The notes under the pieces were generated by a model, which ran no database searches, was not told where the DNA came from, and saw only the letters and a program-made list of their open reading frames with translations. Position numbers and translations under genes: made by a program. A stretch of DNA of 64,000 nucleotides from an uncultured Calditrichaceae bacterium (GTDB taxonomy: Bacteria > Calditrichota > Calditrichia > RBG-13-44-9 > J075): positions 6,908 through 70,907 of the forward strand of contig CAZFVV010000003.1 in NCBI GenBank assembly GCA_964522165.1. Reading direction: 5' to 3'. Below are positions 14,188 through 59,186 of this stretch, in pieces (the first letter of the stretch is position 1; every line of letters starts with the position of its first letter).

Positions 14188-17100
14188 TCAATTCCCTGTT
14201 TGGGGGATTTCTCCGCCAAAGCGGACGATGGTTCCCCCCTCGCGGTTGGGGAGGAGGTCGATGGCTCCGTGGAGCTTTTCGGCGCGAAAACGCATATTGT
14301 TCAGCCCGTTGCCCCGCGAGTACGCTTCCTCGTCCCCCTCGCCGGCGCCTGCGGCGGCCTTGAACAACGGCAGGCCGATGCCGTCGTCGGTCAGGGTAAT
14401 CTCTAAACGCAAGGCGGCGGAGATCGCCAGGGTAACGTTCCGGCAGCGCGAATGTTTGAGGGCGTTGTTCATCGCCTCTTTGAAAATAAGGGTGAGGTGC
14501 CGCCGCCAGTCCATAGAAAGGCGGATGGATTCCATCTCCCTGGTAAGCCCCTCCACCCGGAAGGCGATGCCGGTTTTATCGAATAGCTCGTCCCCGAAAT
14601 CTTTCAGGCGCACCGCCACTTCGTGCAGGGAATCTTTTTCCGGGTCCAGGGTCCAGATGAAATCCCGCATTCCCCCGGAAAGGGTTTTGGCGGTCTCCCC
14701 GATGCGGTTCAAATATTCGGTCAGCTCCGGGGGAGCGCCGTTGAGGCTGCGCTTCACAATTTCGCTGAAAAGGGAAATTTTGGTGAGCTTGTGCCCCAAT
14801 TCGTCGTGAAAATCATGGGCGGCTTTGGCGCGCACCCGCTCGTTCTCCTGCGCTCTCACCTGCTCGATCTCCCTCACGCGACGGAGTTTTTGCCGCAGCC
14901 GGAATTCGTGCAGGAATACAATTAAAAACAGCAGCGCCGCCGCGCAGGCCAGGTAGAACCACCAGGTTTTCCAAAACGGCGGTTCGATGATGAGCGTTAC
15001 CGCGGCTCCCACTTCGTTCCAAATCCCGTCATTATTGGCGCCTTTGACCCGGAAGGTGTATTTCCCGGGGTCCAGGTTGGTAAAACTGGCAAACCGGCGC
15101 GCGCCGCACTGAATCCACTCCTCGTTGAATCCCTCCAGCCGGTAGGCGTACTGGTTTTTACGCGGGTTGGTATAATCCAGCGCCGCAAATTCAAAGGTTA
15201 GATAATTTTCCCGGTAGGAAAGGTGAATGGGCAGGTTTTGAAATATCGCCCGGTTCAGCATCTCTGCGCGCGGCTGGTCGAAGATGGTCATAGAAGTGAG
15301 AATGACCGGGGGAACATAAAAATTATCCTTAATGCTATCCGGGAAGAAGGCGGTCATCCCATTCACCCCGCCGAAAAGCATTTCCCCGTTGCGGCGCAGG
15401 CAATAAGCGCCGGGATTGAACTCATTGCCTTGCAGGCCGTCGTACACGTCATAATTCTTGAAAGTGATTCCCGGGGAGTTGAATTCGCCGCCTCCCAGGA
15501 TCAGTTTAGACAGCCCTTTATTGGTGCTCAGCCATAAATTGCCCTGGCGGTCTTCCAGGATGCCGAAGATCATATTATTGGCCAACCCGTCGCGCTCGGA
15601 GAAGAAGGTAAACTGCTCCGTTGCGCGGTTGAATTGGTTCAGCCCTCCGCCGTAAGTACCGAACCAGAGATTGCCGGCTCTATCCTGGTAAATCGAAAGG
15701 ATCGCCGGGTTGTTCAAGCTGTGCGGATTATCGAATTCCCGCATGTAACGGATGAACTGCTCGTTCTTGCGGTCGAATTTGTTGAGTCCCCCGGCCCGGG
15801 TTCCGATCCACAAGGTTCGGCCCTGGCTGTAAGAATCTTCATAAATGGCCCAAACCTCGTTGTGGCTCAGGCTGTGAGGGTTATTGGCGTCGTGGCGGTA
15901 CTGGGTAAATTTCTCCGTAAAGCGGTCGAATTTATTCAAGCCGGTGTTGGTTCCGATCCATAACTGCCCGTATTGATCCTCGCTAATGGAGTTGATGCGG
16001 TCCCCGCTGATGCTGTTGGAAGAATGGGGATCATAGCGGTAATATTTGAATCGCCCGCTTCGCCGGTTCAGCAGGTTAAGCCCCCCGCCGCTCGTGCCCA
16101 CCCACACGTTGCCGGATTGATCCTGGTACAGGGCGGTAACGGCGTCGTTGCTTAAGCTATAAGGACGAGCCGGATTGTGCCGGAAATGCGAATATTGGTA
16201 CAGGGAGGGGTTGCGCGGGTCGCTTCTCAGTTTGTTCAGCCCTCCCCCGGCGGTTCCCACCCACAAACTCGCGGAATCATCTTCCATGATGGCCGTGACC
16301 ACCTTATCGCTCAGGCTCCGCGGGTTCCCGGGAACATGGGTATAGTGGCGAAAGTTCTGATTCCGCTGGTTGATTTTATTCAACCCTCCCCGCCCGGTGC
16401 CTACCCAGATAATACCGGAGCGGTCCTCGAAAACCGCCGTAACCAGGTTGTCGCTCAAACTTTGCGGATTGAGAGGGTCATTCCGATAGGAAATAAACCC
16501 GTTCGGCGGTTTGGAAGAACCTTGCCGGGCGGCCCCGGTTTCGGCAGGTTCCGGGTGATCGGGTTCGTAATACCGGCAGCTCAGCCCTCCCTCCGCCGTC
16601 CCGATCCAGAGGTTGTGGTTGCGATCCTCCAGCACGGCGTTGATTTTCCCGGAGGCGGGGTCCTTCCCCCCGGCAGGCTTATAATCTTCCGGCCGGTAGC
16701 GGATCACCCGCCCGGTTCGGGAATCCAGGCGATTCAGCCCGTTTGCGTATGTGATAATCCATAACGTCTCGCCCGGCCTGTCGCTGCCGGGGTAGATCGA
16801 CACGATGTAGCTGTGGTTCAAAGTGTTGGGATTCCGGGAATCGTGTTTATAAACCGTAAAATCTCCCGGTTTGGCGGTCGAATCCTGGCGCAGGCGGGCT
16901 AATCCGTCCGCGGTGCCGATCCACAAATTGCCCTCGCCATCCTCGTGAATGGCGGAAATCCAGTTGTGAGGCAGGGAATTCGGATTGCTCTTCTGCCGCA
17001 ATTTGCGGGCAAAACTCCTCGCCTCTTGTTCGGAGAGCAGGAACAATTGAATCCCCCATAAATCCGGGCGCTCCGGCGGCTCGGTAATCCACTGCCGGAA

Positions 17101-18276
17101 GGAGTGCTGCTCGTCGGAGCGGTAGCGCAGCTTGTACTGGCCGGGTTTGAGGTAGAGAACCTGCATTTCGATGCGGTTGCGCGCCGCCCCGCCTGAGTGC
17201 ACGGATTTTTCGTAATTCATTTTCCAGACAACTTCGTTTGGGCGAATTTTTTCGATCCAGCCGTAATCGCTCATTCCGTAAGCGTTGCCCTCTCCCACGG
17301 CTACCGCCAGCAGGTAGGCAGGGCGTTTGATCTCAAAATATTCCGTCTCGTCTTCAAAGTTCTGCAAATGCAGAATCGAGGCCAGGCGGCGATTGCGGTT
17401 GGCCAGGGAGTCCATGGTAGTAAATATTTCCGGGAGATAGGTGGGGTTGCGGGCGTAAAAACGCTCGAAGCGCAATCGCGGGGGTTCGGCGGGAGATTCG
17501 AGGGGGGGTGAAGAAACGTTTTTCTGGCCATCGACAAGCGTCTCCGCCGGTAACGCGGTTTTGTTGAGCCCCCCGCCCTCGGTGCCGATCCACAAATTCC
17601 CCTGCTGGTCCTCGTGCAGCACCCGGATGACGTTGCTGCTGAGGCTGAATGGATCCGCGGGGGAGGGGCGGTAATGGAAAAAACGCTCCTTTGCGTGGTC
17701 GAAAAGGTTCAGCCCCCCGCCGGCCGTTCCGATCCAGAAATTGCCCCGGCTGTCCTCTAACACTGCGGTGACGTTGTCGTCGCTCAGGCAATCGCGGTCC
17801 TGGGGATTGTGGCGGTAATGGCTAAATTTTTCTGTGGCCGGGTCAAAGCGGTTGATGCCCCCGCCGCTGGCGACTACCCACAAATAACCCAGCCGGTCTT
17901 CATAGATAGAGTAAATATAGTTCCCGGAGATGGACGTCGAATCCAGGGGATCGAAACGGTAGGTGCTGAAGCGGTAGCCGTCGTATTTATTCAACCCGTC
18001 GGAAGTTCCGATCCACAGCAGCCCGCGGTGATCCTGGTAAATCGTCGAAATATTGCTCTGGAACAGCCCCTGCTCAAAGGAGATGCGCTCGAATTTGATT
18101 TCCTGCCGGGCGAGCAAACCTGCGGCATATCCCCATAGCAGGCCGGCTAATATGATCGCAACCGTCGGCCTGTGTCCAAAACCATCCCCCTTTGAAAGGT
18201 GAAGAGTAAAAAATGGCTTGTGCAAAGCCCGGCCGACCGGTATTTTTTTGTTTGATAAGCGTTTTTTTAGATACAT
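14188..18276 (-). CDS. hybrid sensor histidine kinase with two-component-regulator beta-propeller (Reg_prop) repeats and Y_Y_Y domain, NarL-type (HisKA_3) kinase core
   Basis: 1362 aa; N-terminal TM; >15 repeats of the NxIxxIxxDxxGxLWIGTxxGLNxF type; TM; AHDFHDELGHKLTKISL (HisKA_3 H-box); HATPase_c at C-terminus; adjacent to the NarL-type RR. Confidence 0.8.
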   Translation of the reverse strand: MYLKKRLSNKKIPVGRALHKPFFTLHLSKGDGFGHRPTVAIILAGLLWGYAAGLLARQEIKFERISFEQGLFQSNISTIYQDHRGLLWIGTSDGLNKYDGYRFSTYRFDPLDSTSISGNYIYSIYEDRLGYLWVVASGGGINRFDPATEKFSHYRHNPQDRDCLSDDNVTAVLEDSRGNFWIGTAGGGLNLFDHAKERFFHYRPSPADPFSLSSNVIRVLHEDQQGNLWIGTEGGGLNKTALPAETLVDGQKNVSSPPLESPAEPPRLRFERFYARNPTYLPEIFTTMDSLANRNRRLASILHLQNFEDETEYFEIKRPAYLLAVAVGEGNAYGMSDYGWIEKIRPNEVVWKMNYEKSVHSGGAARNRIEMQVLYLKPGQYKLRYRSDEQHSFRQWITEPPERPDLWGIQLFLLSEQEARSFARKLRQKSNPNSLPHNWISAIHEDGEGNLWIGTADGLARLRQDSTAKPGDFTVYKHDSRNPNTLNHSYIVSIYPGSDRPGETLWIITYANGLNRLDSRTGRVIRYRPEDYKPAGGKDPASGKINAVLEDRNHNLWIGTAEGGLSCRYYEPDHPEPAETGAARQGSSKPPNGFISYRNDPLNPQSLSDNLVTAVFEDRSGIIWVGTGRGGLNKINQRNQNFRHYTHVPGNPRSLSDKVVTAIMEDDSASLWVGTAGGGLNKLRSDPRNPSLYQYSHFRHNPARPYSLSNDAVTALYQDQSGNVWVGTSGGGLNLLNRRSGRFKYYRYDPHSSNSISGDRINSISEDQYGQLWIGTNTGLNKFDRFTEKFTQYRHDANNPHSLSHNEVWAIYEDSYSQGRTLWIGTRAGGLNKFDRKNEQFIRYMREFDNPHSLNNPAILSIYQDRAGNLWFGTYGGGLNQFNRATEQFTFFSERDGLANNMIFGILEDRQGNLWLSTNKGLSKLILGGGEFNSPGITFKNYDVYDGLQGNEFNPGAYCLRRNGEMLFGGVNGMTAFFPDSIKDNFYVPPVILTSMTIFDQPRAEMLNRAIFQNLPIHLSYRENYLTFEFAALDYTNPRKNQYAYRLEGFNEEWIQCGARRFASFTNLDPGKYTFRVKGANNDGIWNEVGAAVTLIIEPPFWKTWWFYLACAAALLFLIVFLHEFRLRQKLRRVREIEQVRAQENERVRAKAAHDFHDELGHKLTKISLFSEIVKRSLNGAPPELTEYLNRIGETAKTLSGGMRDFIWTLDPEKDSLHEVAVRLKDFGDELFDKTGIAFRVEGLTREMESIRLSMDWRRHLTLIFKEAMNNALKHSRCRNVTLAISAALRLEITLTDDGIGLPLFKAAAGAGEGDEEAYSRGNGLNNMRFRAEKLHGAIDLLPNREGGTIVRFGGEIPQTGN

Positions 18277-33493: not shown

Positions 33494-33526
33494 AGACCTC
33501 AAAGGTTTCTAAAACCTTTGAGGTCT
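33494..33526. repeat. REP-like 33-bp perfect palindrome, copy 1 (AGACCTCAAAGGTTT-ctaa-AAACCTTTGAGGTCT)
   Basis: 15-bp perfect stem; starts one base after the methyltransferase stop. Confidence 0.9.
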
Positions 33527-33542
33527 GGACCCGGCGAAGATA

Positions 33543-33575
33543 AGACCTCAAAGGTTTTCAAAACCTTTGAGGTCT
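33543..33575. repeat. REP-like palindrome, copy 2 (preceded by the ccggcgaagata leader also seen at 39385)
   Basis: agacctcaaaggttttcaaaacctttgaggtct. Confidence 0.9.
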
Positions 33576-33596: not shown

Positions 33597-34231
33597 ATGC
33601 AACAACTCGAAAAATTGAAACCGGGAAATTTCTACCATATTTATAACCGCGGCAATAACCGGGAAGACATCTTCTTCGAAGAGAAAAACTACCCCTACTT
33701 TTTAGAACTATACGCCAAACATATAACGCCAGTAGCGGATACATTCGCCTATTGCCTGATGAGAAACCATTTCCACCTATTGGTGAGGATAAAGGCCTCA
33801 AAGGAGATAAAGACCTCAAAGGTTTTGAAAACCTTTGAGGTCTTACCCCCGGGCGAAGAAAAACTTTTTAACTACTCCCAACCATTCTCAAATTTCTTCA
33901 ACGCTTACCAAAAGCGATCAACCGGCAGTATTTCCGTACCGGCAGTTTATTTCAGGCTCGTTTCGGAAGAAATTGGATAGCTTCTCAGGCCATTCTAAAG
34001 CATGTTATTCACTATATTCACCGCAATCCTCAGAAACATGGTTTTGTCACCGATTTTCGGGAGTATCCGCATTCTTCGTATCATACGCTTTTGGCGGATA
34101 AGAATACCAGGCTGAAACGCCGGGAAGTTCTGGAATGGTTTGGAGGCAGGGCGGCGTTTGAGAGGTTCCATATCGAGAACGGCGTTGGAGACGATGATGA
34201 AATACAGAAAATATTTGGCGACGATGAATGA
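33597..34231 (+). pseudogene. IS200/IS605-like Y1 (HUH) transposase, RAYT-like, disrupted
   Basis: MQQLEKLKPGNFYHIYNRGNNREDIFFEEKNYPYFLELYAKHITPVADTFAYCLMRNHFHLLV (HuH motif). A palindrome copy is translated in-frame at 33811-33843. A -1 frameshift at an A-run near 33920 shifts the remainder (AINRQYFRTGSLFQARF...IHYIHRNPQKHGFVTDFREYPHSSYH...) into another frame ending TGA 34229-34231. Confidence 0.65.
33811..33843. repeat. REP-like palindrome, copy 3, inside the transposase reading frame
   Basis: agacctcaaaggttttgaaaacctttgaggtct, preceded by the partial direct repeat aaggcctcaaaggagata. Confidence 0.9.
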
Positions 34232-34238
34232 ATCGAAA

Positions 34239-34271
34239 AGACCTCAAAGGTTTCCGAAACCTTTGAGGTCT
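34239..34271. repeat. REP-like palindrome, copy 4, 25 bp upstream of the DGR target gene
   Basis: agacctcaaaggtttccgaaacctttgaggtct. Confidence 0.9.
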
Positions 34272-34295: not shown

Positions 34296-37200
34296 ATGAA
34301 CCGCTGGATTAAACTGCTGATCATTATTACCGCCCTGGTGGTTGCCGGGGCCACCACCTCGTATTGGGCTGGGCCGTTAATTCAATTTATCGGGGTGAAC
34401 AGTTCCCTGATCCAGGGAGTTGCCGACGCCGTTCAAACCGTCATCTGGGCAATTGCCGGTATTGTCGCGATTGTAGGATGGATCCGCCGCCCCCGCCCGG
34501 CGCCCTCAGCCGCCTCGCCCGCGCCGCGCGAAGCTCCCATGGAGCTGGAAGCCGAAAACGGTTCGCTGGTTAATACCGGCGAAATCAAAGACAGCACAAT
34601 CGTAACCGGAAAGGAGGCCCGGGTAGTGCATACCGGAACCTATATCGAGAAAGTGGAAACGCAAATCATCAAGGGCGCGCCCAACGTCGATCCCAAAACC
34701 CTGCGCGTCGCCTACCTCAACCGCTTGTTGTACTTCACCCGCGAGCTGTCCCTGGCCGGAATCGATCCCCAGGCGGCCAGCGAGCCGACCGCCGCGCTCA
34801 AATTAGACGCCGTTTATACCGCCCTCCGCACCATGACCCCGGAGGACCAGGAACGCCTGGAGCAGGGCAAAAAAATGGATCGAGAGACCCGCTATCTCTC
34901 CGCGCTGGAACAGTTGAACCGCCGCCAATACCTGGTATTGTTAGGCGACCCCGGCAGCGGCAAAAGCACCTTTGTCAATTTTGTAGCCCTGTGCTTAACC
35001 GGGGAGGGGCTGGGGATGCCGGATGCCAATCTAACTCTCCTTACCGCCCCGTTGCCGGATGAAGAAAAAAAGGAAAAAGAAGCCCCCCGGCCCCAGCCCT
35101 GGAACCACGGGGCGCTGCTGCCGGTGCGGGTGATTTTGCGCGACTTTGCCGCCCGGGGATTGCCGCGTAGCGGCCAAAAAGCCACCGCCGGGCACCTCTG
35201 GAACTTCATCCGCGCGGAGTTAAAAGCCCTCTCGCTTGAAAATTACGCCGATCATCTGCAACAAGAGTTGCTCGATAAAGGCGGGCTAATCTTGCTCGAC
35301 GGGCTGGATGAGGTGCCGGAAGCGCAGCAGCGCCGCATTCAGATCAAACAGGCGGTGGAAGAATTCAAAGCGGTTTACCGTAAATGCCGCATTCTCATCA
35401 CCAGCCGCACCTACGCCTACCAGAAACAGGATTGGCGGCTGCCGGAGTTCCAGGAAACCATCCTGGCGCCCTTTAGCCACGGGCAAATCGAGGCGTTCGT
35501 GGAACACTGGTACGAACACGTGGGGAGCCTGCGGGGATGGCCGGAAGATAAGTACCGCGGCGGGGCGGCGCTGCTCAAACGCGCCATTTCGGGCAGCCAG
35601 CGGTTAGGGGAGCTGGCCGGGCGTCCGCTGTTGCTGACCTTAATGGCCAGCCTGCACGCCTGGCGGGGCGGAACTCTCCCGGAAAAACGCGAAGAACTCT
35701 ACGCCAACGCGGTGGACCTGCTGTTAGACTGGTGGGAAAAACCCAAAATCGTGCGCGACGCGCAAGGCGCGCCGGTGGTCTTGCAGCCCAGCCTTTCGGA
35801 GTGGCTCAACCTGGGCCGCCAGAAAGTGCGCGACCTGCTCAACGAGCTGGCCTATACCGCCCACGCCGCCCAGCCGGAATTGCAGGGCACCGCGGATATT
35901 CCCGAAAGCAAACTGGTGGAAGGCCTCCTGAAGCTCTCCGGCAATCCGGATCTGAAACCGCAGCGGCTGGTGGAATACCTGAGCCAGCGCGCCGGGCTGC
36001 TGCTGCCCCGCGGGGTGGAAGTCTATACCTTTCCCCACCGCACCTTTCAGGAGTACCTGGCGGCCTGTTATTTGACCGACCACGATTTTCCCGATGCGGT
36101 GGCGGAACTGGCCGGCAACGACCCCAATCGCTGGCGGGAAGTGGCGCTGTTAGCCGCCGCCAAAGCCGCCCGCGGCTCCGCTTCCACCATTTGGGGGTTT
36201 ATCGAGGCGTTATGTTACCGCGACTGCGACAATGCCTCCCCCGCGGCAAAGGCGCTGTGGGGCGCGCACCTGGCCGGGCAGGCCCTGCTGGAAATTGTGG
36301 ATACTTCTAAAATCAGCGAACGGAATCAGCCCAAGGTAGAGCGGGTCAAAACCTGGCTGGTTCACCTGCTCTCCCGGGCGGATTTCCCGGCGCTGGAGCG
36401 CGCCGAGGCCGGGCGCAATCTTGCCCGCTTAGGCGACCCCCGCCGGGAAGCGCTGGAAGTTGACGCCCTGCAATTTTGCTGCGTGCCCGCCGGCCCCTTC
36501 TGGATGGGCAGCGAGGAAGCTGACCGGGAAAAGCCCCTGCATTTAAATGAACAGTTGGATAAACCCTGCTGGATTTCTAAATTTCCCATTACCAACGCCC
36601 AGTACCGCCGGTTCGTGGAAGACGGCGGGTATGGGCAGGAAGGGTACTGGCGGGAAGCAAAGGCGGCAAAGGTGTGGCAGGGGGGAAAGATAAAAGCCTG
36701 GAATGACGATACCCCGCGCGAAGCCCCGTTCGATTTCGGCGCGCCTTTCCACCTTCCCAACCACCCGGTGGTGGGAATTACCTGGTACGAAGCCCTGGCC
36801 TTTACCCGCTGGCTGACCGGGCGCTGGCAAAAAAGGGGCTGGCTGCCCCGGGGCGGGATCGTGCGCCTCCCCTCGGAAGCGGAGTGGGAAAAAGCCGCCC
36901 GCGGGGGAGAGAAAATTCCTTCCGCGCCGGTCGTTCGTTCTGTTCAAGAATGGTCAATTGCCAATTGGCAATTCACAATTGGCAATTGGCAATTAAAAAA
37001 TAATCAACGCCGCTATCCCTGGGGCGACGAACCCGATCCCAACCGCGCCAATTACGCCGATACCGGCATCGGCAGTCCCAGCGCGGTGGGCTGCTTTCCC
37101 GCAGAAGAACGCAGGGGCGATTCGCGAATCGCCCCTGCATACGGATGTGAGGAGATGAGCGGGAACGTATGGGAGTGGTGCCAGACCCAATGGCGGGGAA

Positions 37201-37382
37201 ATTACCAAAAACCGGCGAATGAATCGCTGGAGGGGACGTCAGCCCGTGTTGTTCGCGGCGGCGCGTTCGGCAGCCCCGACGGCAGCGTGCGGTGCGCGTA
37301 TCGCATCTACGTCGTTCCCGATTCTCGTAACTACTACCTCGGGTTTCGTGTGTCGCTGTTCCCATTTACCTCTGGTCTCTGA
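34296..37382 (+). CDS. DGR target protein: N-terminal 2-TM segment, NACHT (STAND) NTPase, helical region, C-terminal FGE-sulfatase/C-type-lectin-fold domain carrying the variable repeat
   Basis: 1028 aa; TM helices in residues ~5-60; Walker A LLGDPGSGKSTF; NACHT Walker B LILLDGLDEV; C-terminal FGE-sulfatase family motifs (HPVVGITWYEALAFTRWL, RLPSEAEWEKAARGG, RRYPWGDE, GNVWEWC, RVVRGGAF); the VR occupies the last ~40 codons. Confidence 0.85.
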   Translation: MNRWIKLLIIITALVVAGATTSYWAGPLIQFIGVNSSLIQGVADAVQTVIWAIAGIVAIVGWIRRPRPAPSAASPAPREAPMELEAENGSLVNTGEIKDSTIVTGKEARVVHTGTYIEKVETQIIKGAPNVDPKTLRVAYLNRLLYFTRELSLAGIDPQAASEPTAALKLDAVYTALRTMTPEDQERLEQGKKMDRETRYLSALEQLNRRQYLVLLGDPGSGKSTFVNFVALCLTGEGLGMPDANLTLLTAPLPDEEKKEKEAPRPQPWNHGALLPVRVILRDFAARGLPRSGQKATAGHLWNFIRAELKALSLENYADHLQQELLDKGGLILLDGLDEVPEAQQRRIQIKQAVEEFKAVYRKCRILITSRTYAYQKQDWRLPEFQETILAPFSHGQIEAFVEHWYEHVGSLRGWPEDKYRGGAALLKRAISGSQRLGELAGRPLLLTLMASLHAWRGGTLPEKREELYANAVDLLLDWWEKPKIVRDAQGAPVVLQPSLSEWLNLGRQKVRDLLNELAYTAHAAQPELQGTADIPESKLVEGLLKLSGNPDLKPQRLVEYLSQRAGLLLPRGVEVYTFPHRTFQEYLAACYLTDHDFPDAVAELAGNDPNRWREVALLAAAKAARGSASTIWGFIEALCYRDCDNASPAAKALWGAHLAGQALLEIVDTSKISERNQPKVERVKTWLVHLLSRADFPALERAEAGRNLARLGDPRREALEVDALQFCCVPAGPFWMGSEEADREKPLHLNEQLDKPCWISKFPITNAQYRRFVEDGGYGQEGYWREAKAAKVWQGGKIKAWNDDTPREAPFDFGAPFHLPNHPVVGITWYEALAFTRWLTGRWQKRGWLPRGGIVRLPSEAEWEKAARGGEKIPSAPVVRSVQEWSIANWQFTIGNWQLKNNQRRYPWGDEPDPNRANYADTGIGSPSAVGCFPAEERRGDSRIAPAYGCEEMSGNVWEWCQTQWRGNYQKPANESLEGTSARVVRGGAFGSPDGSVRCAYRIYVVPDSRNYYLGFRVSLFPFTSGL
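36954..36993. repeat. in-frame AT-rich CAATTG-based repeat inserted within the FGE/CLec domain coding sequence
   Basis: caattgccaattggcaattcacaattggcaattggcaatt encodes ...WSIANWQFTIGNWQLKNN... between the conserved RGG and RRYPWGDE motifs; local GC is far below that of the gene. Confidence 0.6.
37241..37361 (+). repeat. DGR variable repeat (VR) at the 3' end of the target gene
   Basis: 121 bp aligns without gaps to 37886-38006; 18 mismatches, 17 of them at positions where the TR has adenine. Confidence 0.85.
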
Positions 37383-37410
37383 AATCTCTGAACTCTGAAA
37401 CTCTGGAAGA

Positions 37411-37460
37411 TTTCATCCCGATTTGCATCCAGGGATGGATGCGTTTTTGTCGGGATGAAA
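37411..37460. other. nested stem-loop (cruciform-prone) about 30 bp downstream of the target gene stop
   Basis: tttcatcccga-ttt-[gcatcc a ggg a tggatgc]-gtttttg-tcgggatgaaa; flanked by direct repeats gaaactctg (37397 and 37457). Confidence 0.55.
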
Positions 37461-37482
37461 CTCTGAAAAAGGAAAAATTTTT

Positions 37483-37827
37483 ATGGCCCAACCCGAGATG
37501 CCTATTTTTGTTCGTACCTTTGATTTTCTAAGCTGGCTGCTGCCGGCAACCAACCATTTTCCCCGGGCGCACCGGCATTCGTTTACTCAACGCCTGTTGG
37601 ACGCCGGGTTCGATTTACGGGAGCATTTGGAGGAAGCCAATCTGCGCAAAGGAAAAGAGAGGTTAGAGCGATTAACCAGCGCCGATGCAGCGTTAGCCAA
37701 AGTACGATTGTATTTGCGCCTGGCGGTTAAGTGGGGATGGTTTTCCCAGGGACAATACGAACACGTCTCCCGCATGGTGGTGGAGATCGGGCGCCTCCTG
37801 GGCGGTTGGAAGAAAGTAACGGTTTAA
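37483..37827 (+). CDS. avd: Avd-like DGR accessory variability determinant (four-helix-bundle protein, 23S rRNA-IVS protein family)
   Basis: 114 aa, basic, all-helical; FDFLSWLLPATNHFPRAHRHSFTQRLLDAGFDLREHLEEAN resembles the four-helix-bundle (Avd) family; lies between target gene and TR as in canonical DGRs. Confidence 0.65.
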   Translation: MAQPEMPIFVRTFDFLSWLLPATNHFPRAHRHSFTQRLLDAGFDLREHLEEANLRKGKERLERLTSADAALAKVRLYLRLAVKWGWFSQGQYEHVSRMVVEIGRLLGGWKKVTV

Positions 37828-37832
37828 GTTTA

Positions 37833-37865
37833 AGACCTCAAAGGTTTCAAAAACCTTTGAGGTCT
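37833..37865. repeat. REP-like palindrome, copy 5, between avd and TR
   Basis: agacctcaaaggtttcaaaaacctttgaggtct. Confidence 0.9.
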
Positions 37866-37885
37866 TAAGGGGCAGGCTCATACGC

Positions 37886-38006
37886 AGCCCGTGTTGTTCG
37901 CGGCGGCGCGTTCAACAACACCGACAACAACGTGCGGTGCGCGTATCGCAACAACAACGATCCCGATAATCGTAACAACAACATCGGGTTTCGTGTGGCG
38001 CTGTTC
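37886..38006 (+). repeat. DGR template repeat (TR)
   Basis: Non-coding copy of the target 3' end, rich in AAC triplets (aacaacaccgacaacaac...cgcaacaacaacgatcccgataatcgtaacaacaacatc); the adenines are the sites that differ in the VR. Confidence 0.85.
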
Positions 38007-38047
38007 ACGTTTTTCAAAGGGTAAAGGCCTCAAACGACAATGGATAA

Positions 38048-38080
38048 AGACCTCAAAGGTTTCCGAAACCTTTGAGGTCT
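38048..38080. repeat. REP-like palindrome, copy 6, 42 bp downstream of the TR
   Basis: agacctcaaaggtttccgaaacctttgaggtct; preceded by ggcctcaaacga...ataa as at 33791. Confidence 0.9.
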
Positions 38081-38272
38081 AACTTCCGAAGGTTTTTACG
38101 TTGCTGGAAATGCCCGGCGCGCTGGAAATGAGTGGTCGGGGTTCCGGGCCGAAGCGAAAAATGGCCGAGCCTGTTCCGGGCCTTTCCCGGGCTTCCCCGG
38201 GAAAGGGCAAATAACAACCCTCCCGCCTCCTGCCCTATAAGGGGTTGAGGCGGGAGATTTTTATAGCCGAAA

Positions 38273-39307
38273 ATGTTTGACGCATTAATTTCATGGGATA
38301 ATCTTTACCTGGCGTATAAAAAAGCCGGCAAAGGCAAACGCGGGCAGATCGATGTGGCGGATTTTGAGTATGCTCTGGAAGAAAACCTGCTGCGGCTGCA
38401 AGAAGAATTGCGGGATCAGACTTATGCACCGGGTGGTTACCACAGTTTTTACATCCACGAACCCAAACGGCGATTGATCAGCGCTGCGCCGTTCCGTGAC
38501 CGGGTGGTTCACCATGCCCTGTGTAATCTCACTGAACCTGTATTCGAGCAGAGTTTTATTTTTGATTCTTACGCCAATCGGGTGGGAAAAGGAACTCACC
38601 ACGCTTTGGATCGCTGCCAGCAATACGCCCGGCATTACCCCTATGTGCTGCAATGCGACCTGCGGCAGTTTTTTCCCAGTATCGACCATGCGATTTTGCG
38701 CCAAATCTTAATGCGGAAAATCGCTGAACCTGCAGTATTATGGTTGATCGATCAAATTCTCCGCAGCGGCGAGGGCGTATTAAGCGAGGCATACGCAATG
38801 GTCTATTTTCCCGGGGATGATTTGTTCGCCGCCAACCGCCCGCGCGGTTTGCCAATCGGCAATCTGACCAGCCAGTTTTGGGCCAATGTTTATCTCAATC
38901 CCTTTGACCATTTCGTCAAACGAGAGTTACGCTGCAAAGCCTACCTGCGTTACGTGGATGACTTTTTGCTTTTCGGGGAAGACAAAGCCACATTATGGCG
39001 CTGGAAAAAGGCCATTACCAAACGCCTGGAACAGTATCGATTGACAATTCATCCGACGGCTCATCCCCGCCCGGTAGAGGAAGGGATACCGTTTTTAGGA
39101 TTCATCGTCTTCCGGGAAAAGCGACGCTTGAAACGCAGGAAAGGAATTTTTTACCGCAGAAAACTGAAATGCCTGATTTCAGACTACCATTCCGGCGATC
39201 TACCCCTGGAAAAAATTAAGCAGAGCGTGCAGGGATGGATTAACCACACCCGTTACGCTAATACCATCGGGCTGCGCAAAAGCCTGTTAGGAAAAATGAA
39301 AATATAA
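38273..39307 (+). CDS. DGR-type reverse transcriptase
   Basis: 344 aa; RT motifs 1-2 RLISAAPFRDRVVHHAL; motif A LQCDLRQFFPSIDH; DGR-diagnostic motif LPIGNLTSQFWANVYLNPFD (IGxxxSQ); motif C YLRYVDDFLLFG (YVDD); no maturase or endonuclease domains. Confidence 0.9.
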   Translation: MFDALISWDNLYLAYKKAGKGKRGQIDVADFEYALEENLLRLQEELRDQTYAPGGYHSFYIHEPKRRLISAAPFRDRVVHHALCNLTEPVFEQSFIFDSYANRVGKGTHHALDRCQQYARHYPYVLQCDLRQFFPSIDHAILRQILMRKIAEPAVLWLIDQILRSGEGVLSEAYAMVYFPGDDLFAANRPRGLPIGNLTSQFWANVYLNPFDHFVKRELRCKAYLRYVDDFLLFGEDKATLWRWKKAITKRLEQYRLTIHPTAHPRPVEEGIPFLGFIVFREKRRLKRRKGIFYRRKLKCLISDYHSGDLPLEKIKQSVQGWINHTRYANTIGLRKSLLGKMKI

Positions 39308-39323: not shown

Positions 39324-39380
39324 AGACCTCAAAGGTTTCTCCCGTAAGGGATGGCTTACGCCACAAAACCTTTAAGGTCT
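39324..39380. repeat. REP-like palindrome, copy 7 (split; 24-bp insertion in the loop, one stem mismatch)
   Basis: agacctcaaaggttt-ctcccgtaagggatggcttacgccac-aaaacctttaaggtct. Confidence 0.7.
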
Positions 39381-39396
39381 AAATCCGGCGAAGATA

Positions 39397-39429
39397 AGAC
39401 CTCAAAGGTTTCAAAAACCTTTGAGGTCT
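39397..39429. repeat. REP-like palindrome, copy 8, 22 bp upstream of the next gene
   Basis: agacctcaaaggtttcaaaaacctttgaggtct, preceded by ccggcgaagata as in copy 2. Confidence 0.9.
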
Positions 39430-42639: not shown

Positions 42640-43719
42640 TCAGTCCGCTCCCAAATTTACCGCGTCTCCGGAACGAATTTCTCCGCTCATGTTGATTGCG
42701 GGTACCGCCGGATCAATCGCCGGGCCGATGCCGGCGTTCCAAAAGGGTGAATCCGGGCGCAAGCGGAAGTCATGGTTGGCAGGGTCGATGAAAATCAGGC
42801 TGTCAGGCAAGTCGCCGCTGAACCAGGGAATTTGAGAACTGTCGCGCGGCGCTTTGACCAAGGCGTCGCCCGGTACGTTGGAGCTGTTGTAATCGCAGGC
42901 CTCGCTTAAAATCCCGTGGTCGGAGGCCGAAAATCCATCCGCTGCCCCGCGTACAATGTTGTTCACCGCAATTATGCGGGCGTTGTCCTTGCTCCTGAAC
43001 CCGTAGTAAAAGCCGATGATGGTGTTGTTGTAGGCGACCACCTCGGCAGATGCCATGGCGATGATCCCGCTCAGCCGCCCCTCCTCCACTTTGCACTCGA
43101 TGATATTGTTGATCATCAAAGCCGGGGATTTCAGGTCGATGGCGTCGCCGGCGCCGGAGGTCAATTCGATGCGCAGGTAGCAATTCTTGATCACGAAAAA
43201 ATCGCCCTCTTCCGGGTCGATGATGTCGTGGCTTCTGCCGCTGCCTTTCAGCATCATCTGGATTCCGTCGATCTCGATGTTGTCGATCTCGATGTCGATG
43301 CTCTCGGAATTCCCGGTGCTGGTTTCGATGATGCGGTATTTGGTATCGTCCCAGCGCGGGCCGGCGCGGTGGGCGGAATCCGCCACCACGCGCACGTAAC
43401 GTTGCCGGTCGGTTACCCAGTGGTCGAACTGCGCCGGGCGGTCCGGCGAGCCGTTGCTGCTGCGGCAAACCGCCACGGCGATTTCGTTGGCGGCCACCAG
43501 GTCGCGCTTCTCCCGCACCGCAAAACCCTCCAGGGAGGTATAATCCGTACCGGGGCCGTTATCGGGATCGATAATTTTGACCACTTCCGTTGGGGGAGAG
43601 GAGGGCGAGGGGGTTGCGGTGGAATCCGGGTTGGAGTAACTGCACGTGCCCCAAAGCATTCCAATCGTAAAGAGGATTCCCAGTTTGTAAATAGATTGAA
43701 TATTCAGGATTTTTAGCAA
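42640..43719 (-). CDS. right-handed parallel beta-helix repeat protein, secreted, lacking the T9SS C-terminal domain present in its paralogs
   Basis: 359 aa; signal peptide; NNIIxC/NNTIIGF beta-helix rungs; ~45% identical to the 43824 paralog but stops right after the ...NLGAD motif where the paralog continues into a Por C-terminal domain. Confidence 0.55.
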   Translation of the reverse strand: MLKILNIQSIYKLGILFTIGMLWGTCSYSNPDSTATPSPSSPPTEVVKIIDPDNGPGTDYTSLEGFAVREKRDLVAANEIAVAVCRSSNGSPDRPAQFDHWVTDRQRYVRVVADSAHRAGPRWDDTKYRIIETSTGNSESIDIEIDNIEIDGIQMMLKGSGRSHDIIDPEEGDFFVIKNCYLRIELTSGAGDAIDLKSPALMINNIIECKVEEGRLSGIIAMASAEVVAYNNTIIGFYYGFRSKDNARIIAVNNIVRGAADGFSASDHGILSEACDYNSSNVPGDALVKAPRDSSQIPWFSGDLPDSLIFIDPANHDFRLRPDSPFWNAGIGPAIDPAVPAINMSGEIRSGDAVNLGAD

Positions 43720-43823
43720 GACGATAATAGTTACCTGTCAGTTGGCGGATCGAATTCCACTGTTATTGGCACATTTCTATGAGCAGGGGCTTTAAACCTG
43801 CGAAAATGAATTTTCGCACTCCT

Positions 43824-45314
43824 TCACGGCAAAAGTACCATTTTTCGGGCTTGAACGGATTTCGCACTTTCTTCTGAGCGGGATTTAACCTCCAGGCGGT
43901 AGAGATACACCCCGCCGGCCGCCGGTTTCCCGTTCTCATCCCGGCCGTCCCACTGCGCCTGGTGCAAACCGGCCGGGAGCTGGCCGGCTAACAGCATTCT
44001 GACTTTCTGTCCCAGGATATTGAAAACGGCCAACTCCACCTCGCTGGCGCCCGAGATCTGAAAGCTGATTGCCGTAGTCGGGTTGAAGGGATTGGGATAA
44101 TTAGGATACAAAATGGCCGATTGCGGCGGCGCTGCGCCCCAATCTCCCAGGCCGGCCGGCGAACCTTCGAAATCCGCTCCCAGGTCGGTGGTGGGGCCGG
44201 AGCGGGGCTCCTGGTCTATATCCAGCTCCGGCACGCCGGCATTGGCCGCCGGCCCGGCCCCGGCGTGGGTAAAAATAATTCCTGCTTTGAGGTGATAATC
44301 GTTGTTGGGTGCGTTCACAAAAATTGCTTCCACTGGAGTAGCGCCGCTGTACCAGGGGGATTGATTGGAGTTCCGGGGAGCCTGCACCAGCGCATGGCCG
44401 GGTTGGTCGGAGCTGTTGTAGTCGGAATCCGTGGTAAAAATGCCCCCGTCGCTGGCGAGGTAGGGTTCCTCCGAGGCCTCCCGGGAAATATTGTTCACCG
44501 CCCGGATCACGCTGCCGTCGCTCAGGATCGCGTTCTTCCAGCCGATAAAGGTGTTGTTGAATACATTTACCTCTCCGCCGTATTTGACCAGAACCCCTTT
44601 CGAGCCGGTACCTTTGATGATGCAATTGAAAATATCCGCGTCGGATTTCAGGTCGATGCCGTAGCCGGTATCCGAGGTGAGGTCCATCCACATGAAGCAG
44701 TTTTTCACCACCAGGTAGCCGCCTTCCTCCGGATCGATCACGTCGTTGCTGTTCCCGCTGCCCCAGATGCGCATCTGCAGACCGTCGATGACCATGTAAT
44801 CGATCTCCACGTCGATACATTCGGAATTGACCGTGGTGTACTCGATCACCCGGTAGCGGGTTTCGTCCCAGCGGGCGGTGGCGCGATGGCCCTCATCAGC
44901 CATTACCACCACATAGTGCTCCGGGTCGGTTACCCAGTCGTAAAACTGCGCCGGGCCGTCCGGAGAGCCGTTGCTGCTGCGGCACAGCGCCACGGCGATC
45001 TCGTTGGCGCTCACGATGTCGCGTTTTTCATTCTGGGCAAAATCGTCTAAGGAAGTATAATCCGTTCCGGGGCCGTTATCGGGGTCGATGATTTTAATGA
45101 CCACGGTGGGGCCGTCGGGGGACTGCCCCCCGGCCACAGGGGAAATCCGCAATCCCTGGCCGTAAATATCCGGGAAGGTGAAAAATGGGGATTGGCCATG
45201 CAGCAGCGCCGAAAATGCGAATATCCAGAAGCAGGTTAACATCCGCGGGAGCATCCCGCGATTCATCCGGTTGAAATCATTGCGGCAATCCATGCCGTTT
45301 CCTCTCGTTTTCAA
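43824..45314 (-). CDS. right-handed beta-helix repeat protein with T9SS C-terminal sorting domain
   Basis: 496 aa (start may be an internal Met); beta-helix rungs; C-terminus ILYPNYPNPFNPTTAISF...VYLYRLEV...KMVLLP. Confidence 0.6.
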   Translation of the reverse strand: MKTRGNGMDCRNDFNRMNRGMLPRMLTCFWIFAFSALLHGQSPFFTFPDIYGQGLRISPVAGGQSPDGPTVVIKIIDPDNGPGTDYTSLDDFAQNEKRDIVSANEIAVALCRSSNGSPDGPAQFYDWVTDPEHYVVVMADEGHRATARWDETRYRVIEYTTVNSECIDVEIDYMVIDGLQMRIWGSGNSNDVIDPEEGGYLVVKNCFMWMDLTSDTGYGIDLKSDADIFNCIIKGTGSKGVLVKYGGEVNVFNNTFIGWKNAILSDGSVIRAVNNISREASEEPYLASDGGIFTTDSDYNSSDQPGHALVQAPRNSNQSPWYSGATPVEAIFVNAPNNDYHLKAGIIFTHAGAGPAANAGVPELDIDQEPRSGPTTDLGADFEGSPAGLGDWGAAPPQSAILYPNYPNPFNPTTAISFQISGASEVELAVFNILGQKVRMLLAGQLPAGLHQAQWDGRDENGKPAAGGVYLYRLEVKSRSEESAKSVQARKMVLLP

Positions 45315-56201: not shown

Positions 56202-59186
56202 ATGTTTTTGCGATTAATGAGCGTCTTTTTCGTAGCCGCGTTGCAAGGGCTTCTGCTTGCCCAGCCGGTCATTACGATTAAAGACGGCGATATCAACGCC
56301 GGCCAGAGCGTTACCTGGACGTCCGACAACGCGTACTTGTTGGATGGCCTGGTGTTCGTAGAAGACGGCGCGACCCTTACCATTCAAGCCGGAACCGTGG
56401 TCAAAGGCAAAGAAGTGCCCACCACCGGCGACAACACCAGCGCCCTGATCATCGCCAGGGGCGGGAAAATCTACGCCCTCGGCACCGCCACCCAGCCGGT
56501 AATTTTCACCGCGGAGAGCGACGACGTAAGCGATCCGAACGATTTAACCCTGAACGACCGGGGTTTGTGGGGCGGGTTGATCCTGTTAGGTTACGCGGAG
56601 ATCAATACCACCACCGGGGTGGGGCAAATCGAAGGGATTCCCTCCACGGAACCTCGCGGCTCTTACGGCGGCGGCCACGTTAGCCCCAATGACGACGATA
56701 ACTCCGGGGTGGTGCGCTACGTTTCCATCCGCCACGGGGGCAGCGAGATCGGGGCCGGCAACGAGATCAACGGATTGACGTTAGGCGGGGTCGGTCGCGG
56801 CACCACCATCGAATACGTGGAAGTGTATAGCAACTTAGACGACGGTTTCGAGTGGTTCGGGGGCACGGTGAACTGCAAGTACCTGGTGTCGGCCTTTGTG
56901 GGCGACGATGATTTCGATTACGACGAAGGTTACCGGGGCAAAGGGCAGTTCTGGTTTGGGATCAAAGACGTGTTAGTCGGCGGCGGCCGGGTGGCGGAGC
57001 AAGACGGGGGCACCGAGCCGGAAGACGGCCAGCCCTATGCCATCCCGCTGATTTCCAACGTGACCTACTTGGGCGCGGGGGCGGGCAATACTCCGCAGGG
57101 CGACGGCGCGGAGCTGATGATTTTCCGCGATAACGCCGGGGGCAAGTATTACAACAGCATTTTCACTGATTACAACGGCGCGAACGGGGGGAAGGGAATC
57201 ACCGTGGAAGATTTGGCCAGCGGGGAAGACAGCCGGGCGCGGTTGGAGGCGGGGCAGTTGGTGCTGAACAACAACATCTGGTGGAACTTTGCGGCGGGGA
57301 ACGGATTGAGCCAGTTTGCGCCGCAGCAGTTCGTGGCCGACCATTTGGCGGCGAATAACAACCAGATCGTGGACCCGCAGATCAACAGCGTCAGCCGGGC
57401 GCAGAACGGGCAGTTGGACCCCCGTCCCAACGCTTCCGGCCCTGCCGCCAGCGGCGCGACGCCGGTAAACGATCCCTTCTTCACCCCGGTCAGCTACTAC
57501 GGCGCGTTCAATCCCGGCGCACCCCTGTGGACTTCCGGCTGGACCGCGCTCTACGATGAGGAAATCATCTCCCAGACCATCACCATTCAGGATAATTTTA
57601 TCAATCCCGGCGAGAGCAAAGCCCTCACTGCCAATAACGTGTACCTGTTAGACGGCCTGGTGTTCGTGGAAGACGGCGCCATCCTCACCATCGAAGCCGG
57701 AACGGTGATCAAGGGCAAAGAAGTGCCCACCACCGGCGACAACACCAGCGCCCTGATCATTGCCCGGGGCGGGAAAATCTACGCCGAAGGCACCCAGAAT
57801 TACCCGATTATCTTCACCGCGGAGAGCGACGACGTAAGCGATCCGAACGATTTGACCCTGAACGACCGGGGTCTGTGGGGCGGTTTGATCCTGTTGGGCT
57901 ACGCGGAGATCAATACCACCATCGGGGTGGGGCAGATCGAAGGGATTCCCTCCACGGAACCGCGCGGCGCTTACGGCGGGGGCCACGTTAGCCCCAATGA
58001 CGACGATAACTCCGGGGTGGTGCGCTACGTTTCCATCCGCCACGGGGGCAGCGAGATCGGGGCCGGCAACGAGATCAACGGATTGACGTTAGGCGGGGTC
58101 GGTCGCGGCACCACCATCGAATACGTGGAAGTGTATAGCAACTTAGACGACGGTTTCGAGTGGTTCGGGGGCACGGTGAACTGCAAGTACCTGGTGTCGG
58201 CCTTTGTGGGCGACGATGATTTCGATTACGACGAAGGTTACCGGGGCAAAGGGCAGTTCTGGTTTGGGATCAAAGACGTGTTAGTCGGCGGCGGCCGGGT
58301 GGCGGAGCAAGACGGGGGCACCGAGCCGGAAGACGGCCAGCCCTATGCCATCCCGCTGATTTCCAACGTGACCTACTTGGGCGCGGGGGCGGGCAATACT
58401 CCGCAGGGCGACGGCGCGGAGCTGATGATTTTCCGCGATAACGCCGGGGGCAAGTATTACAACAGCATTTTCACTGATTACAACGGCGCGAACGGGGGGA
58501 AGGGAATCACCGTGGAAGATTTGGCCAGCGGGGAAGACAGCCGGGCGCGGTTGGAGGCGGGGCAGTTGGTGCTGAACAACAACATCTGGTGGAACTTTGC
58601 GGCGGGGAACGGATTGAGCCAGTTTGCGCCGCAGCAGTTCGTGGCCGACCATTTGGCGGCGAATAACAACCAGATCGTGGACCCGCAGATCAACAGCGTC
58701 AGCCGGGCGCAGAACGGGCAGTTGGACCCCCGTCCCAACGCTTCCGGCCCTGCCGCCAGCGGCGCGACGCCGGTAAACGATCCCTTCTTCACCCCGGTCA
58801 GCTACTACGGCGCGTTCGACCCCAACGCCCCGGTGCTCTGGACGAATCGTTGGACCGCTTTGAACGGGGAAAGGGTGACCGGCATTAAAGACCGGCAGTT
58901 GGATGGCAACGGGCTGGCTCCCAATGCCTTCGCCCTCAGCCAGAACTATCCCAATCCCTTCAACCCCAGCACCAACATTCGCTACAGCCTGCCGCGGGCG
59001 ACCAACGTGAAGATTACGGTTTATAACCTGCGCGGGCAGTTAGTAGCGACGCTGGTGGACGGATACCGGGCCGCCGGCGAGTACCTGGTAACCTGGAACG
59101 CCGCCAACCTGGCCAGCGGGGTATATTTCTACCGCCTGGAAGCGCCGGGGACGGTGGAAACCCGCAAAATGATGCTGCTGCGTTGA
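56202..59186 (+). CDS. secreted protein with an internally duplicated ~436-aa module and T9SS C-terminal sorting domain
   Basis: 994 aa; signal peptide; two tandem modules (residues ~23-458 and ~459-894); C-terminus NYPNPFNPSTNIRYSL...VYFYRLEA...KMMLLR. Confidence 0.6.
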   Translation: MFLRLMSVFFVAALQGLLLAQPVITIKDGDINAGQSVTWTSDNAYLLDGLVFVEDGATLTIQAGTVVKGKEVPTTGDNTSALIIARGGKIYALGTATQPVIFTAESDDVSDPNDLTLNDRGLWGGLILLGYAEINTTTGVGQIEGIPSTEPRGSYGGGHVSPNDDDNSGVVRYVSIRHGGSEIGAGNEINGLTLGGVGRGTTIEYVEVYSNLDDGFEWFGGTVNCKYLVSAFVGDDDFDYDEGYRGKGQFWFGIKDVLVGGGRVAEQDGGTEPEDGQPYAIPLISNVTYLGAGAGNTPQGDGAELMIFRDNAGGKYYNSIFTDYNGANGGKGITVEDLASGEDSRARLEAGQLVLNNNIWWNFAAGNGLSQFAPQQFVADHLAANNNQIVDPQINSVSRAQNGQLDPRPNASGPAASGATPVNDPFFTPVSYYGAFNPGAPLWTSGWTALYDEEIISQTITIQDNFINPGESKALTANNVYLLDGLVFVEDGAILTIEAGTVIKGKEVPTTGDNTSALIIARGGKIYAEGTQNYPIIFTAESDDVSDPNDLTLNDRGLWGGLILLGYAEINTTIGVGQIEGIPSTEPRGAYGGGHVSPNDDDNSGVVRYVSIRHGGSEIGAGNEINGLTLGGVGRGTTIEYVEVYSNLDDGFEWFGGTVNCKYLVSAFVGDDDFDYDEGYRGKGQFWFGIKDVLVGGGRVAEQDGGTEPEDGQPYAIPLISNVTYLGAGAGNTPQGDGAELMIFRDNAGGKYYNSIFTDYNGANGGKGITVEDLASGEDSRARLEAGQLVLNNNIWWNFAAGNGLSQFAPQQFVADHLAANNNQIVDPQINSVSRAQNGQLDPRPNASGPAASGATPVNDPFFTPVSYYGAFDPNAPVLWTNRWTALNGERVTGIKDRQLDGNGLAPNAFALSQNYPNPFNPSTNIRYSLPRATNVKITVYNLRGQLVATLVDGYRAAGEYLVTWNAANLASGVYFYRLEAPGTVETRKMMLLR
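56268..58883 (+). repeat. direct tandem duplication, 2 x 1308 bp, with a ~0.9-1.0 kb near-identical core
   Basis: Minus-strand ORFs at 56973-57344 and 58281-58652 (and 57170-57484 / 58478-58792) are identical, giving an offset of exactly 1308 bp; only a few synonymous differences occur near the 5' ends of the units. Confidence 0.85.

Follow-up and report, generated by a model that had tools for sequence, protein, structure and literature searches.

A window of 64,000 nucleotides from an uncultured Calditrichaceae bacterium (assembly GCA_964522165.1, contig CAZFVV010000003.1, positions 6,908 to 70,907 of the forward strand) was analyzed, and all coordinates given here are those of the window. 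It contains a diversity-generating retroelement (DGR), whose parts follow one another on the + strand. These are a target gene of 1028 aa (34296-37382) with the variable repeat (VR, 37240-37367) at its 3' end, a gene for Avd, the accessory variability determinant of 114 aa (37483-37827), an intergenic template repeat (TR, 37885-38012), a structured spacer RNA (38098-38262), and a reverse transcriptase (RT) gene of 344 aa (38273-39307). Since target, Avd, TR, spacer and RT are all present on the + strand in the classical order, the DGR was regarded as complete. The locus is very likely a chromosomal DGR of the classical target-avd-TR-RT order, working by RT-Avd copying of the TR and replacement of the VR. 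The adenine-specific difference between VR and TR, the intact components, the covarying RNA and the flanking elements specific to the VR were all shown by the analysis.

The VR and TR were realigned without gaps at the fixed offset of 645 nt. Between 37241-37361 and 37886-38006 there were 18 mismatches, 17 of which were at TR adenines, and these comprised seven A to G, seven A to T and three A to C changes from TR to VR. Adenines make up 29 of the 121 TR bases (24%), and 17 of the 29 were changed in the VR. At this base composition, the binomial probability of at least 17 of 18 mismatches at adenine was 4e-10 (Fisher P = 4e-12). A sequence-only reading of the window had listed these substitutions and the encoded peptides; every substitution was reproduced in the new alignment, and the TR- and VR-encoded peptides were exact on translation. 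It had also reported a single G/T difference outside the adenines. This was correct within the 121 nt, where the sole such mismatch is G to T (TR 37998, VR 37353), but not for the complete repeat, as the homology extends 1 base further in the 5' direction and 6 bases further in the 3' direction, which adds an A to C change at 38007 and a G to A change at 38009. Over the full 128 nt, 18 of the 20 mismatches were at TR adenines.

The VR consists of an identical 5' flank (37240-37268), a mutagenised part (37269-37338) and a 3' part resembling the initiation of mutagenic homology (IMH) element (37339-37367), and the adenine-bearing part of the TR is at 37914-37983. The flanks had been described as 100% identical, which applied to the 29-nt 5' flank and failed for the 3' flank, where VR and TR differ at three positions in the last 29 nt (VR 37353, 37362, and 37364). 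The non-adenine differences sit 3' of the last mutated adenine, as they do in most, not all, related loci, and over the 113 nt of 37240-37352 VR and TR differ at TR adenines only. No second VR or further repeat copy was found within the 64-kb window.

The VR spans 43 codons at the 3' end of the target gene (aa 982-1024 of 1028), and it preserves the frame as well as the residues of the scaffold. The number of randomisable codons, previously put at about 12, was 17, including 11 AAY codons and 6 codons with a single adenine, and 13 of the 17 currently differ from the TR. Moreover, 28 of the 29 adenines in the TR occupy the first or second codon position, a stop codon is unreachable, and the theoretical repertoire was computed as 3.5e16 peptides.

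The copy at 37885-38012 could in principle be an ordinary duplicated fragment of the target 3' end, that is, a pseudogene with random divergence. Short 3'-end duplications do occur, and this copy is non-coding and lies near repetitive extragenic palindromic (REP) sequences and the debris of a broken REP-associated tyrosine transposase (RAYT) gene. Random divergence is contradicted by the 17 of 18 differences that fall on the adenines of one copy. Furthermore, the copy sits between Avd and a DGR RT and is followed by covarying RNA, and the arrangement recurs in nine unrelated contigs. The base specificity and this context already refute the pseudogene explanation, to which we assign practically no credence, and its earlier dismissal from the sequence was borne out.

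The Avd protein passed the cut-off of the NCBIfam equivalog NF033474 DivGenRetAVD (89.9 bits compared to 80). It also matched Pfam bAvd at 3.9e-18 and the PDB structures 4dwl and 8ub7_B. The RT, which was recognized by Pfam RVT_1, by its motifs and by a PDB match, contains IGNLTSQ at residue 195 and YVDD at residue 227. Both motifs are invariant in 18 relatives, and the RT of the window retains all columns that are invariant across the 18 family members. Motif 4 in the form [ILV]GxxxSQ (the SQ motif) defines DGR RTs, and YVDD corresponds to the catalytic motif YxDD. The best PDB match was 8ub7_A (3.5e-45), compared to 2.8e-19 for group II intron RTs, and the partner chain of the RT in 8ub7 is named Avd. 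The 8ub7 entry set, with nine complexes, a 328-aa RT and an Avd fusion, fits the cryo-electron microscopy work on the Bordetella phage RT (bRT) in complex with Avd and RNA.

The best NCBIfam RT model for this protein was that of group II intron RT/maturases and several DRT models matched as well, which would agree with an RT of another class (group II intron, retron, or DRT/Abi) beside an incidental repeat pair. The scores, however, were far under the cut-offs, at 134.6 bits against 300 for the group II intron model TIGR04416, 50.9 against 200 for Drt3a, and 46.9 against 235 for retron_St85. No intron or retron RNA of Rfam was found in the window. In addition, the protein has the SQ motif of the DGR type, and its match to the bRT chain is better by 26 orders of magnitude than its match to group II RTs. 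The chance that the RT belongs to another class is thus minute, and it was treated as a DGR RT.

The protein search with the RT gave at least 8000 matches, and the best 120 of them were 69-77% identical. The named relatives among these best 120 came from metagenome-assembled genomes (MAGs) of Chloroflexota, Anaerolineae or Anaerolineales. Nine related loci (L061, L062, L064, L066, L070, L071, L073, L075, and L076) were compared, which makes ten with the window. In each of the nine, the bAvd gene, the intergenic TR and the RT come in the same order as in the window. Seven of them (L062, L064, L066, L070, L071, L073, and L076) have targets with a NACHT domain and a formylglycine-generating enzyme (FGE)-sulfatase domain; the target of L075 has only FGE-sulfatase on record, and that of L061 is cut by the end of the locus. 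Several relatives carry two or three targets. The related VR/TR pairs contain 13-21 adenine mismatches each, and in most pairs at most 1-2 non-adenine differences, usually near the 3' end. As exceptions, L071 has 13 such differences and L076 has 6, of which four are one indel. With the partner parts intact and nine loci showing the same signature, these results supported the DGR interpretation that had been proposed from the sequence, with adenine mutagenesis, a fixed scaffold and a putative IMH-type asymmetry at the 3' end.

A viral origin of the element was not supported. The RT searches of IMG/VR returned no close relative and two distant ones, and the neighbors of the DGR in the window are housekeeping genes. 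The element was therefore considered cellular and not viral.

The interval between TR and RT is 260 nt in the window. An nhmmer profile of the structured spacer (+ strand) found one copy per locus, each immediately 5' of the RT. RNAalifold predicted 38 pairs in the ten sequences, with changes on both sides in 23 of the 38. In these alignments, 93.5% of the spacer cells were paired, compared to 42-58% when the partners were slid by 1-3 columns, and in the shuffle test of covariation none of 500 shuffles matched the observed values. The spacer includes a first helix (38112-38117 with 38144-38149), a primer strand (38156-38163), a stop strand (38167-38177) and a terminal hairpin (38220-38229 with 38247-38256). 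Neither the spacer nor any other sequence in the window matched an Rfam family.

Two predictions in the spacer were not retained. A local helix proposed by RNAalifold (helix 4) had zero compensatory changes and was set aside because the same bases form a covarying long-range duplex with the segment upstream of the TR. The terminal hairpin region (38219-38262) is followed, in the window only, by ATTTTTAT, and thus looks like a terminator located 10 nt upstream of the start codon of the RT. Its role as an intrinsic terminator was rejected because the U-run is not conserved in the relatives, and for this reason the hairpin was read as a structural RNA element.

The spacer also pairs with both flanks of the TR. 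The upstream strand of the TR-closing duplex, GGGGCAGGCTC at 37869-37879 on the + strand, pairs with GAGCCTGTTCC at 38167-38177. This duplex of the stop type, GGGGCAGGCTC:GAGCCTGTTCC, was predicted in 10 of 10 loci with 11-13 bp, and its pairing is kept by changes on both strands in L064, L076, L071, and L073. A putative template:primer duplex is formed by CGTTTTTC on the TR side (38008-38015, + strand) and GAAAAATG in the spacer (38156-38163). Its pairing was likewise found in 10 of 10 loci, three of which have a single mismatch within the duplex. L064 carries a compensatory change (TTCTTC:GAAGAA), and wobble changes are seen in other loci. In the Bordetella phage, bRT-Avd binds an RNA made up of the TR with the flanks on either side. 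In this RNA, pairing of TR and spacer places a spacer nucleotide as the primer of the cDNA, and a duplex of the spacer with a segment upstream of the TR is the stop element (10.1101/2023.10.23.563531). By analogy, the GGGGCAGGCTC:GAGCCTGTTCC duplex would be the counterpart of the phage avd:Sp "cPRT stop" duplex, and the CGTTTTTC:GAAAAATG duplex is a putative equivalent of the phage TR:Sp duplex with a template:primer role.

The domains of the target protein were assigned with Pfam, hydropathy, motifs and an AlphaFold2 (AF2) model. The hydropathy profile showed two hydrophobic helices at the N-terminus, at about aa 4-26 and 41-64. These are followed by a NACHT NTPase domain (aa 212-407, nt 34929-35516; Pfam 38.3 bits, cut-off 26.7), with the Walker A motif GDPGSGKS at 217 and LILLDGLDE (Walker B) at 331. 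The C-terminal part is an FGE-sulfatase/C-type-lectin (CLec)-like domain (aa 729-1019, nt 36480-37352; Pfam 5e-43). For the last 318 aa, the AF2 model had a pLDDT of 82.8 and a pTM of 0.89, and its top Foldseek matches were structures of EgtB, OvsA and FGE. These structures have a C-type lectin fold of the FGE subtype, and the fold of the target domain was regarded as confirmed. There was also a weak sequence match between the VR region of the target and Treponema TvpA (2y3c, E = 1.5e-4). Because a diversified CLec domain of the FGE type is fused to a NACHT NTPase and a membrane anchor of two helices, the target resembles a STAND/NLR-like sensor that is hypervariable.

Two in-frame insertions in the FGE domain are specific to the lineage of the window. 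The first (36949-36995) is a run of CAATTGG/CAATTGC heptamers that encodes SIANWQFTIGNWQL, and the second (37107-37135) is a perfect 28-nt palindrome, GCAGGGGCGATTCGCGAATCGCCCCTGC, that encodes RRGDSRIA. Both are located in loops that are missing from most homologues, and both are shared with a 93%-identical strain (L005).

The sequence 3' of the VR is entirely unlike the sequence 3' of the TR. A pattern scan showed an array of five CTCTGR hexamers with a spacing of 7-9 nt (37370-37406, + strand), which begins 3 nt past the end of the VR/TR homology and includes the stop codon of the target gene within its second hexamer. The pattern CTCTGRN{1,4}CTCTGR had 4 matches in the 64 kb, all of them at the array, compared to an expected number of 0.05. 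In the ten loci, each of 14 VRs is followed by 3-6 CTCTGR hexamers at a period of 7-8 nt, with a background of 0.06 per 85 nt, and such hexamers followed none of the 10 TRs. We regard the array as a candidate recognition element specific to the VR.

Downstream of the array there is a nested inverted repeat (37411-37460, + strand; DNA fold z = -3.8), which was also detected in the scan for terminator-like sequences. It has an outer stem of 11 bp (37411-37421 with 37450-37460) and an inner stem of 7-8 bp (37425-37431 with 37436-37442), and the loop of the inner hairpin, GGGA, is 4 nt long. This loop fits the GRNA consensus of the hairpins in phage DGRs, which are located 4-34 bp from the VR (PMC3240598). 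In most relatives, a GC hairpin of the form CCAGAGGGGGG-loop-CCCCCCTCTGG comes after the array, and its 3' arm has CTCTGG once more. We tentatively suggest that array and hairpin together are an undescribed cis-acting determinant of the target site that separates the VR from the nearly identical TR (IMH versus IMH*), a role that we rate as rather improbable at present.

Short repeats after VRs were also seen in distant DGRs. The Fischerella and Nostoc plasmid DGRs carry a pyrimidine-rich CCTTTA-like array after each VR, and in a betaproteobacterial Ideonella DGR three TCTGR units precede a GC hairpin. The arrays in the distant DGRs are at 6442-6540 and 7501-7600 in L078, 6486-6590 and 7502-7600 in L079, and 6636-6700 in L080. 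Such arrays may be widespread. No published description of short-repeat arrays after VRs was found in the searchable literature, which does not by itself prove novelty. If the proposal is true, repeat arrays are a widespread and overlooked part of target recognition by DGRs and offer a handle on the unsolved step of cDNA integration.

The region of the DGR also contains a 34-nt palindrome, AAGACCTCAAAGGTTTCnnAAACCTTTGAGGTCT, in eight copies, one of which is split into separated arms. All eight are between 33495 and 39428 (33495-33574, 33812-33842, 34240-34270, 37833-37866, 38048-38081, and 39325-39428), and none was found in the remaining 58 kb of the window. The REP-type copy at 37833-37866 (no strand assigned) lies between the avd stop codon and the upstream strand of the TR-closing duplex; it is missing from that site in the related loci and is outside the DGR proper. 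Another copy, at 38048-38081, is accompanied by a degenerate half copy within an insertion of about 80 nt that is specific to the window (38016-38097, no strand assigned). As a result, the gap between TR and spacer is 89 nt in the window, compared to 5-36 nt in eight relatives and 134 nt in L066, which has an unrelated insertion.

A frameshifted pair of open reading frames interrupted by palindromes (33597-34231) contains an HUH-like motif (HFHLLV) and a YIHRNP motif. It gave weak matches, below the cut-offs, to Y1 transposases and REP-associated tyrosine transposases (E of about 0.002-0.003). The pair is probably what is left of a RAYT gene, now dead, from which the REP copies came. The palindrome is also dispersed in an unrelated Calditrichaceae MAG, and single copies occur in other genomes. 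The possibility that the palindromes are RNA elements of the DGR was rejected; they are missing from the related loci, elsewhere they have no RT or Avd nearby, and they flank the broken RAYT-like gene. They were read as REP elements from a broken RAYT because they are dispersed elsewhere, missing from related DGRs and clustered around the RAYT-like frames. The REP insertions fall between, and never within, the conserved elements of the DGR. This placement is consistent with insertions that are tolerated, without proving tolerance. Mobile-element debris is known from clade-5 DGR loci (PMC10907252).

Several observations weigh against a DGR that works as proposed here on a sensor protein. The primer-type duplex is AU-rich and has a z of about -1, so that its energy alone is not distinguishable from that of shuffled sequences. 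The hairpin 3' of the VR starts 44 nt past the end of the homology, compared to 4-34 bp in phage DGRs. The REP palindromes on both sides of the TR, together with the 89-nt gap, could impair RNA folding or priming. PADLOC gave no specific assignment of the target to a defense system, and its putative function as a sensor or in defense is a published hypothesis. Three further results are either unfavorable or neutral. An identical VR allele was present in a separate Logan assembly (3.2 kb, 100% identity); allele scans with degenerate patterns, which had N at every TR adenine (two against metagenome contigs and one against genome contigs), gave no match in the metagenome and genome contig collections; and the protein search with the last 150 aa of the target found nothing above 58% identity. 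The 90% protein cluster of the target has only one other member.

RT, Avd and TR are intact, as is every conserved element of the RNA. Moreover, the same target gene differs by 5.3% between two strains, and the VR carries no non-adenine change over 113 nt despite this difference, from which we argue that it was recently rewritten from the TR of the window. These findings bear on the alternative that the locus is a DGR by descent which is now inactive, with the VR frozen by the REP insertions or by the loss of a host or cis factor and the adenine pattern left as a fossil. Such a fate would agree with the REP palindromes flanking the TR, with a spacer 89 nt away, and with the same VR allele in a second sequencing run. 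Likewise, repeats resembling MITEs (miniature inverted-repeat transposable elements) are reported to degrade DGR parts in another clade-5 host (PMC10907252). The second run, however, is probably from the same sample series and so not an independent population. The insertions lie exactly between functional elements, the components of the DGR are intact, and neutral non-adenine drift between VR and TR is missing from the 113 nt. We consider an inactive DGR unlikely, though still conceivable enough to be kept in view, and take a DGR that still works as the likelier interpretation.

A second alternative concerns the sequence of the VR and not the DGR itself. The assembled VR could be a consensus or chimera of a mixed population and hence partly an artefact, as public assemblies break at the TR and at the REP copies and the contig of a related strain (L005) joins the target gene to its own TR. 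The same 3.2-kb sequence was independently assembled by Logan with 100% identity, and the frame and the scaffold residues are kept in the VR, which makes an artefact very improbable. In the L005 contig (Logan SRR30932925, 3012-3202), the target gene, whose protein is 93% identical, runs directly into its own TR and the REP that follows, and the called protein ends with the unmutated TR peptide. This join is either an assembly jump via the shared 5' repeat, perhaps favored by a heterogeneous VR, or a real recombinant.

For the working DGR, the priming, the route of integration and the sensor or defense role are inferred from the DGR of the Bordetella phage, and the following sequence of events is proposed. 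The TR and its flanks would be transcribed, and the RNA would fold by pairing of 37869-37879 with 38167-38177 and of 38008-38015 with the A-rich strand at 38156-38163. The RT-Avd complex may then bind this RNA, prime itself from the spacer and copy the TR into cDNA, with priming expected close to 38163 and a first templated base close to 38007 if the phage analogy holds. Random bases would be inserted opposite the 29 TR adenines, and the cDNA would replace the VR with which the target gene ends. Discrimination of the VR from the TR would come from its slightly different, IMH-like 3' end, the CTCTGR array and the hairpin. The outcome could be up to 3.5e16 variants of a putative ligand-binding surface on the CLec domain of the FGE type.

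The element resembles the prototype DGR, that of Bordetella phage BPP-1 (mtd-avd-TR-brt), in its gene order, its adenine-only mutagenesis and the AAC-rich codons of its TR. In both systems, the VR is at the C-terminus of a domain with the C-type lectin fold and is followed by an inverted repeat, the Avd and RT are homologous (PDB 4dwl, 8ub7), and duplexes join the spacer to the TR 3' end and to the sequence upstream of the TR. There are also clear differences. The element of the window is chromosomal and cellular, whereas that of BPP-1 resides in a phage. The target of the window is a 1028-aa NACHT protein with a CLec domain of the FGE subtype, compared to a receptor-binding protein of the tail fiber in BPP-1. 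The upstream strand of the duplex lies past the avd stop codon in the window and inside avd in BPP-1. Furthermore, IMH and IMH* of the window differ at only 3 of 29 positions, and the CTCTGR array is inserted between the VR and a more distant hairpin.

Cellular DGRs of clade 5 have been described in multicellular bacteria, including filamentous Chloroflexi, and the targets of clade 5D have a central NACHT/nSTAND NTPase and one C-terminal CLec domain, and a role as hypervariable sensors of antigens was proposed for them (Doré et al., 2024, PMC10907252). The target of the window shares with clade 5D (Thiohalocapsa PB-PSB1 DGR 1/3/6; PMC10907252) an N-terminal extension, which is sometimes transmembrane, the central NACHT/nSTAND domain and the C-terminal CLec with the VR. 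The likeness is one of target architecture. Transposon- or MITE-like repeats are present in the loci of both. The window has one target, whereas two are common in clade 5D and are found in L062, L070, and L073, and its debris is of the REP/RAYT type, whereas that of clade 5D consists of MITEs derived from insertion sequences.

Two other systems show more limited similarity. The TvpA DGR of Treponema denticola also has a C-terminal VR in a C-type lectin fold of the FGE type, but TvpA, a small lipoprotein of the surface, lacks an NTPase, and both host and RT lineage are different. The cyanobacterial DGRs of clade 5E (Nostoc and Fischerella plasmids) have RTs with 46-49% identity, Avd, targets of the FGE family, adenine-specific VR/TR pairs and a short-repeat array after each VR. 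In contrast to the window, their TR is downstream of the RT, their targets are tied to MoxR/vWA ternary systems, and the unit after the VR is CCTTTA-like instead of CTCTGR.

This kind of system is already well described, as DGR targets with NACHT and CLec domains have been published for filamentous bacteria (Doré et al., 2024), and a single DGR of a large published class changes little alone. The locus is nevertheless a clean and complete example of targeted hypermutation of a putative NACHT/NLR-like sensor, in what the analysis took for a probable filamentous Chloroflexi bacterium, and it supports the proposal that intracellular sensors are diversified in multicellular bacteria. An RNA model of a DGR that is supported by covariation in a Chloroflexi clade, a lineage far from the Bordetella phage, is a useful lead. 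Moreover, the repeat array specific to the VR is a candidate for a testable element of target recognition, and the REP insertions are a natural test of how much spacing between TR and spacer is tolerated.

Other repeats were observed elsewhere in the window. Direct repeats of 35-44 nt occur at 15513-18039 on the - strand, with spacings that are multiples of about 144 nt, and at 8344-9136, with spacings that are multiples of about 180 nt. These two families suggest large proteins with repeat domains, of the propeller or calcium-binding type. In addition, three diverged tandem duplication pairs (43255-45071, 56270-57877, and 61738-63580) show 72-82% identity over 93-300 nt at a spacing of 1.15-1.5 kb, and are probably tandem paralogous genes.

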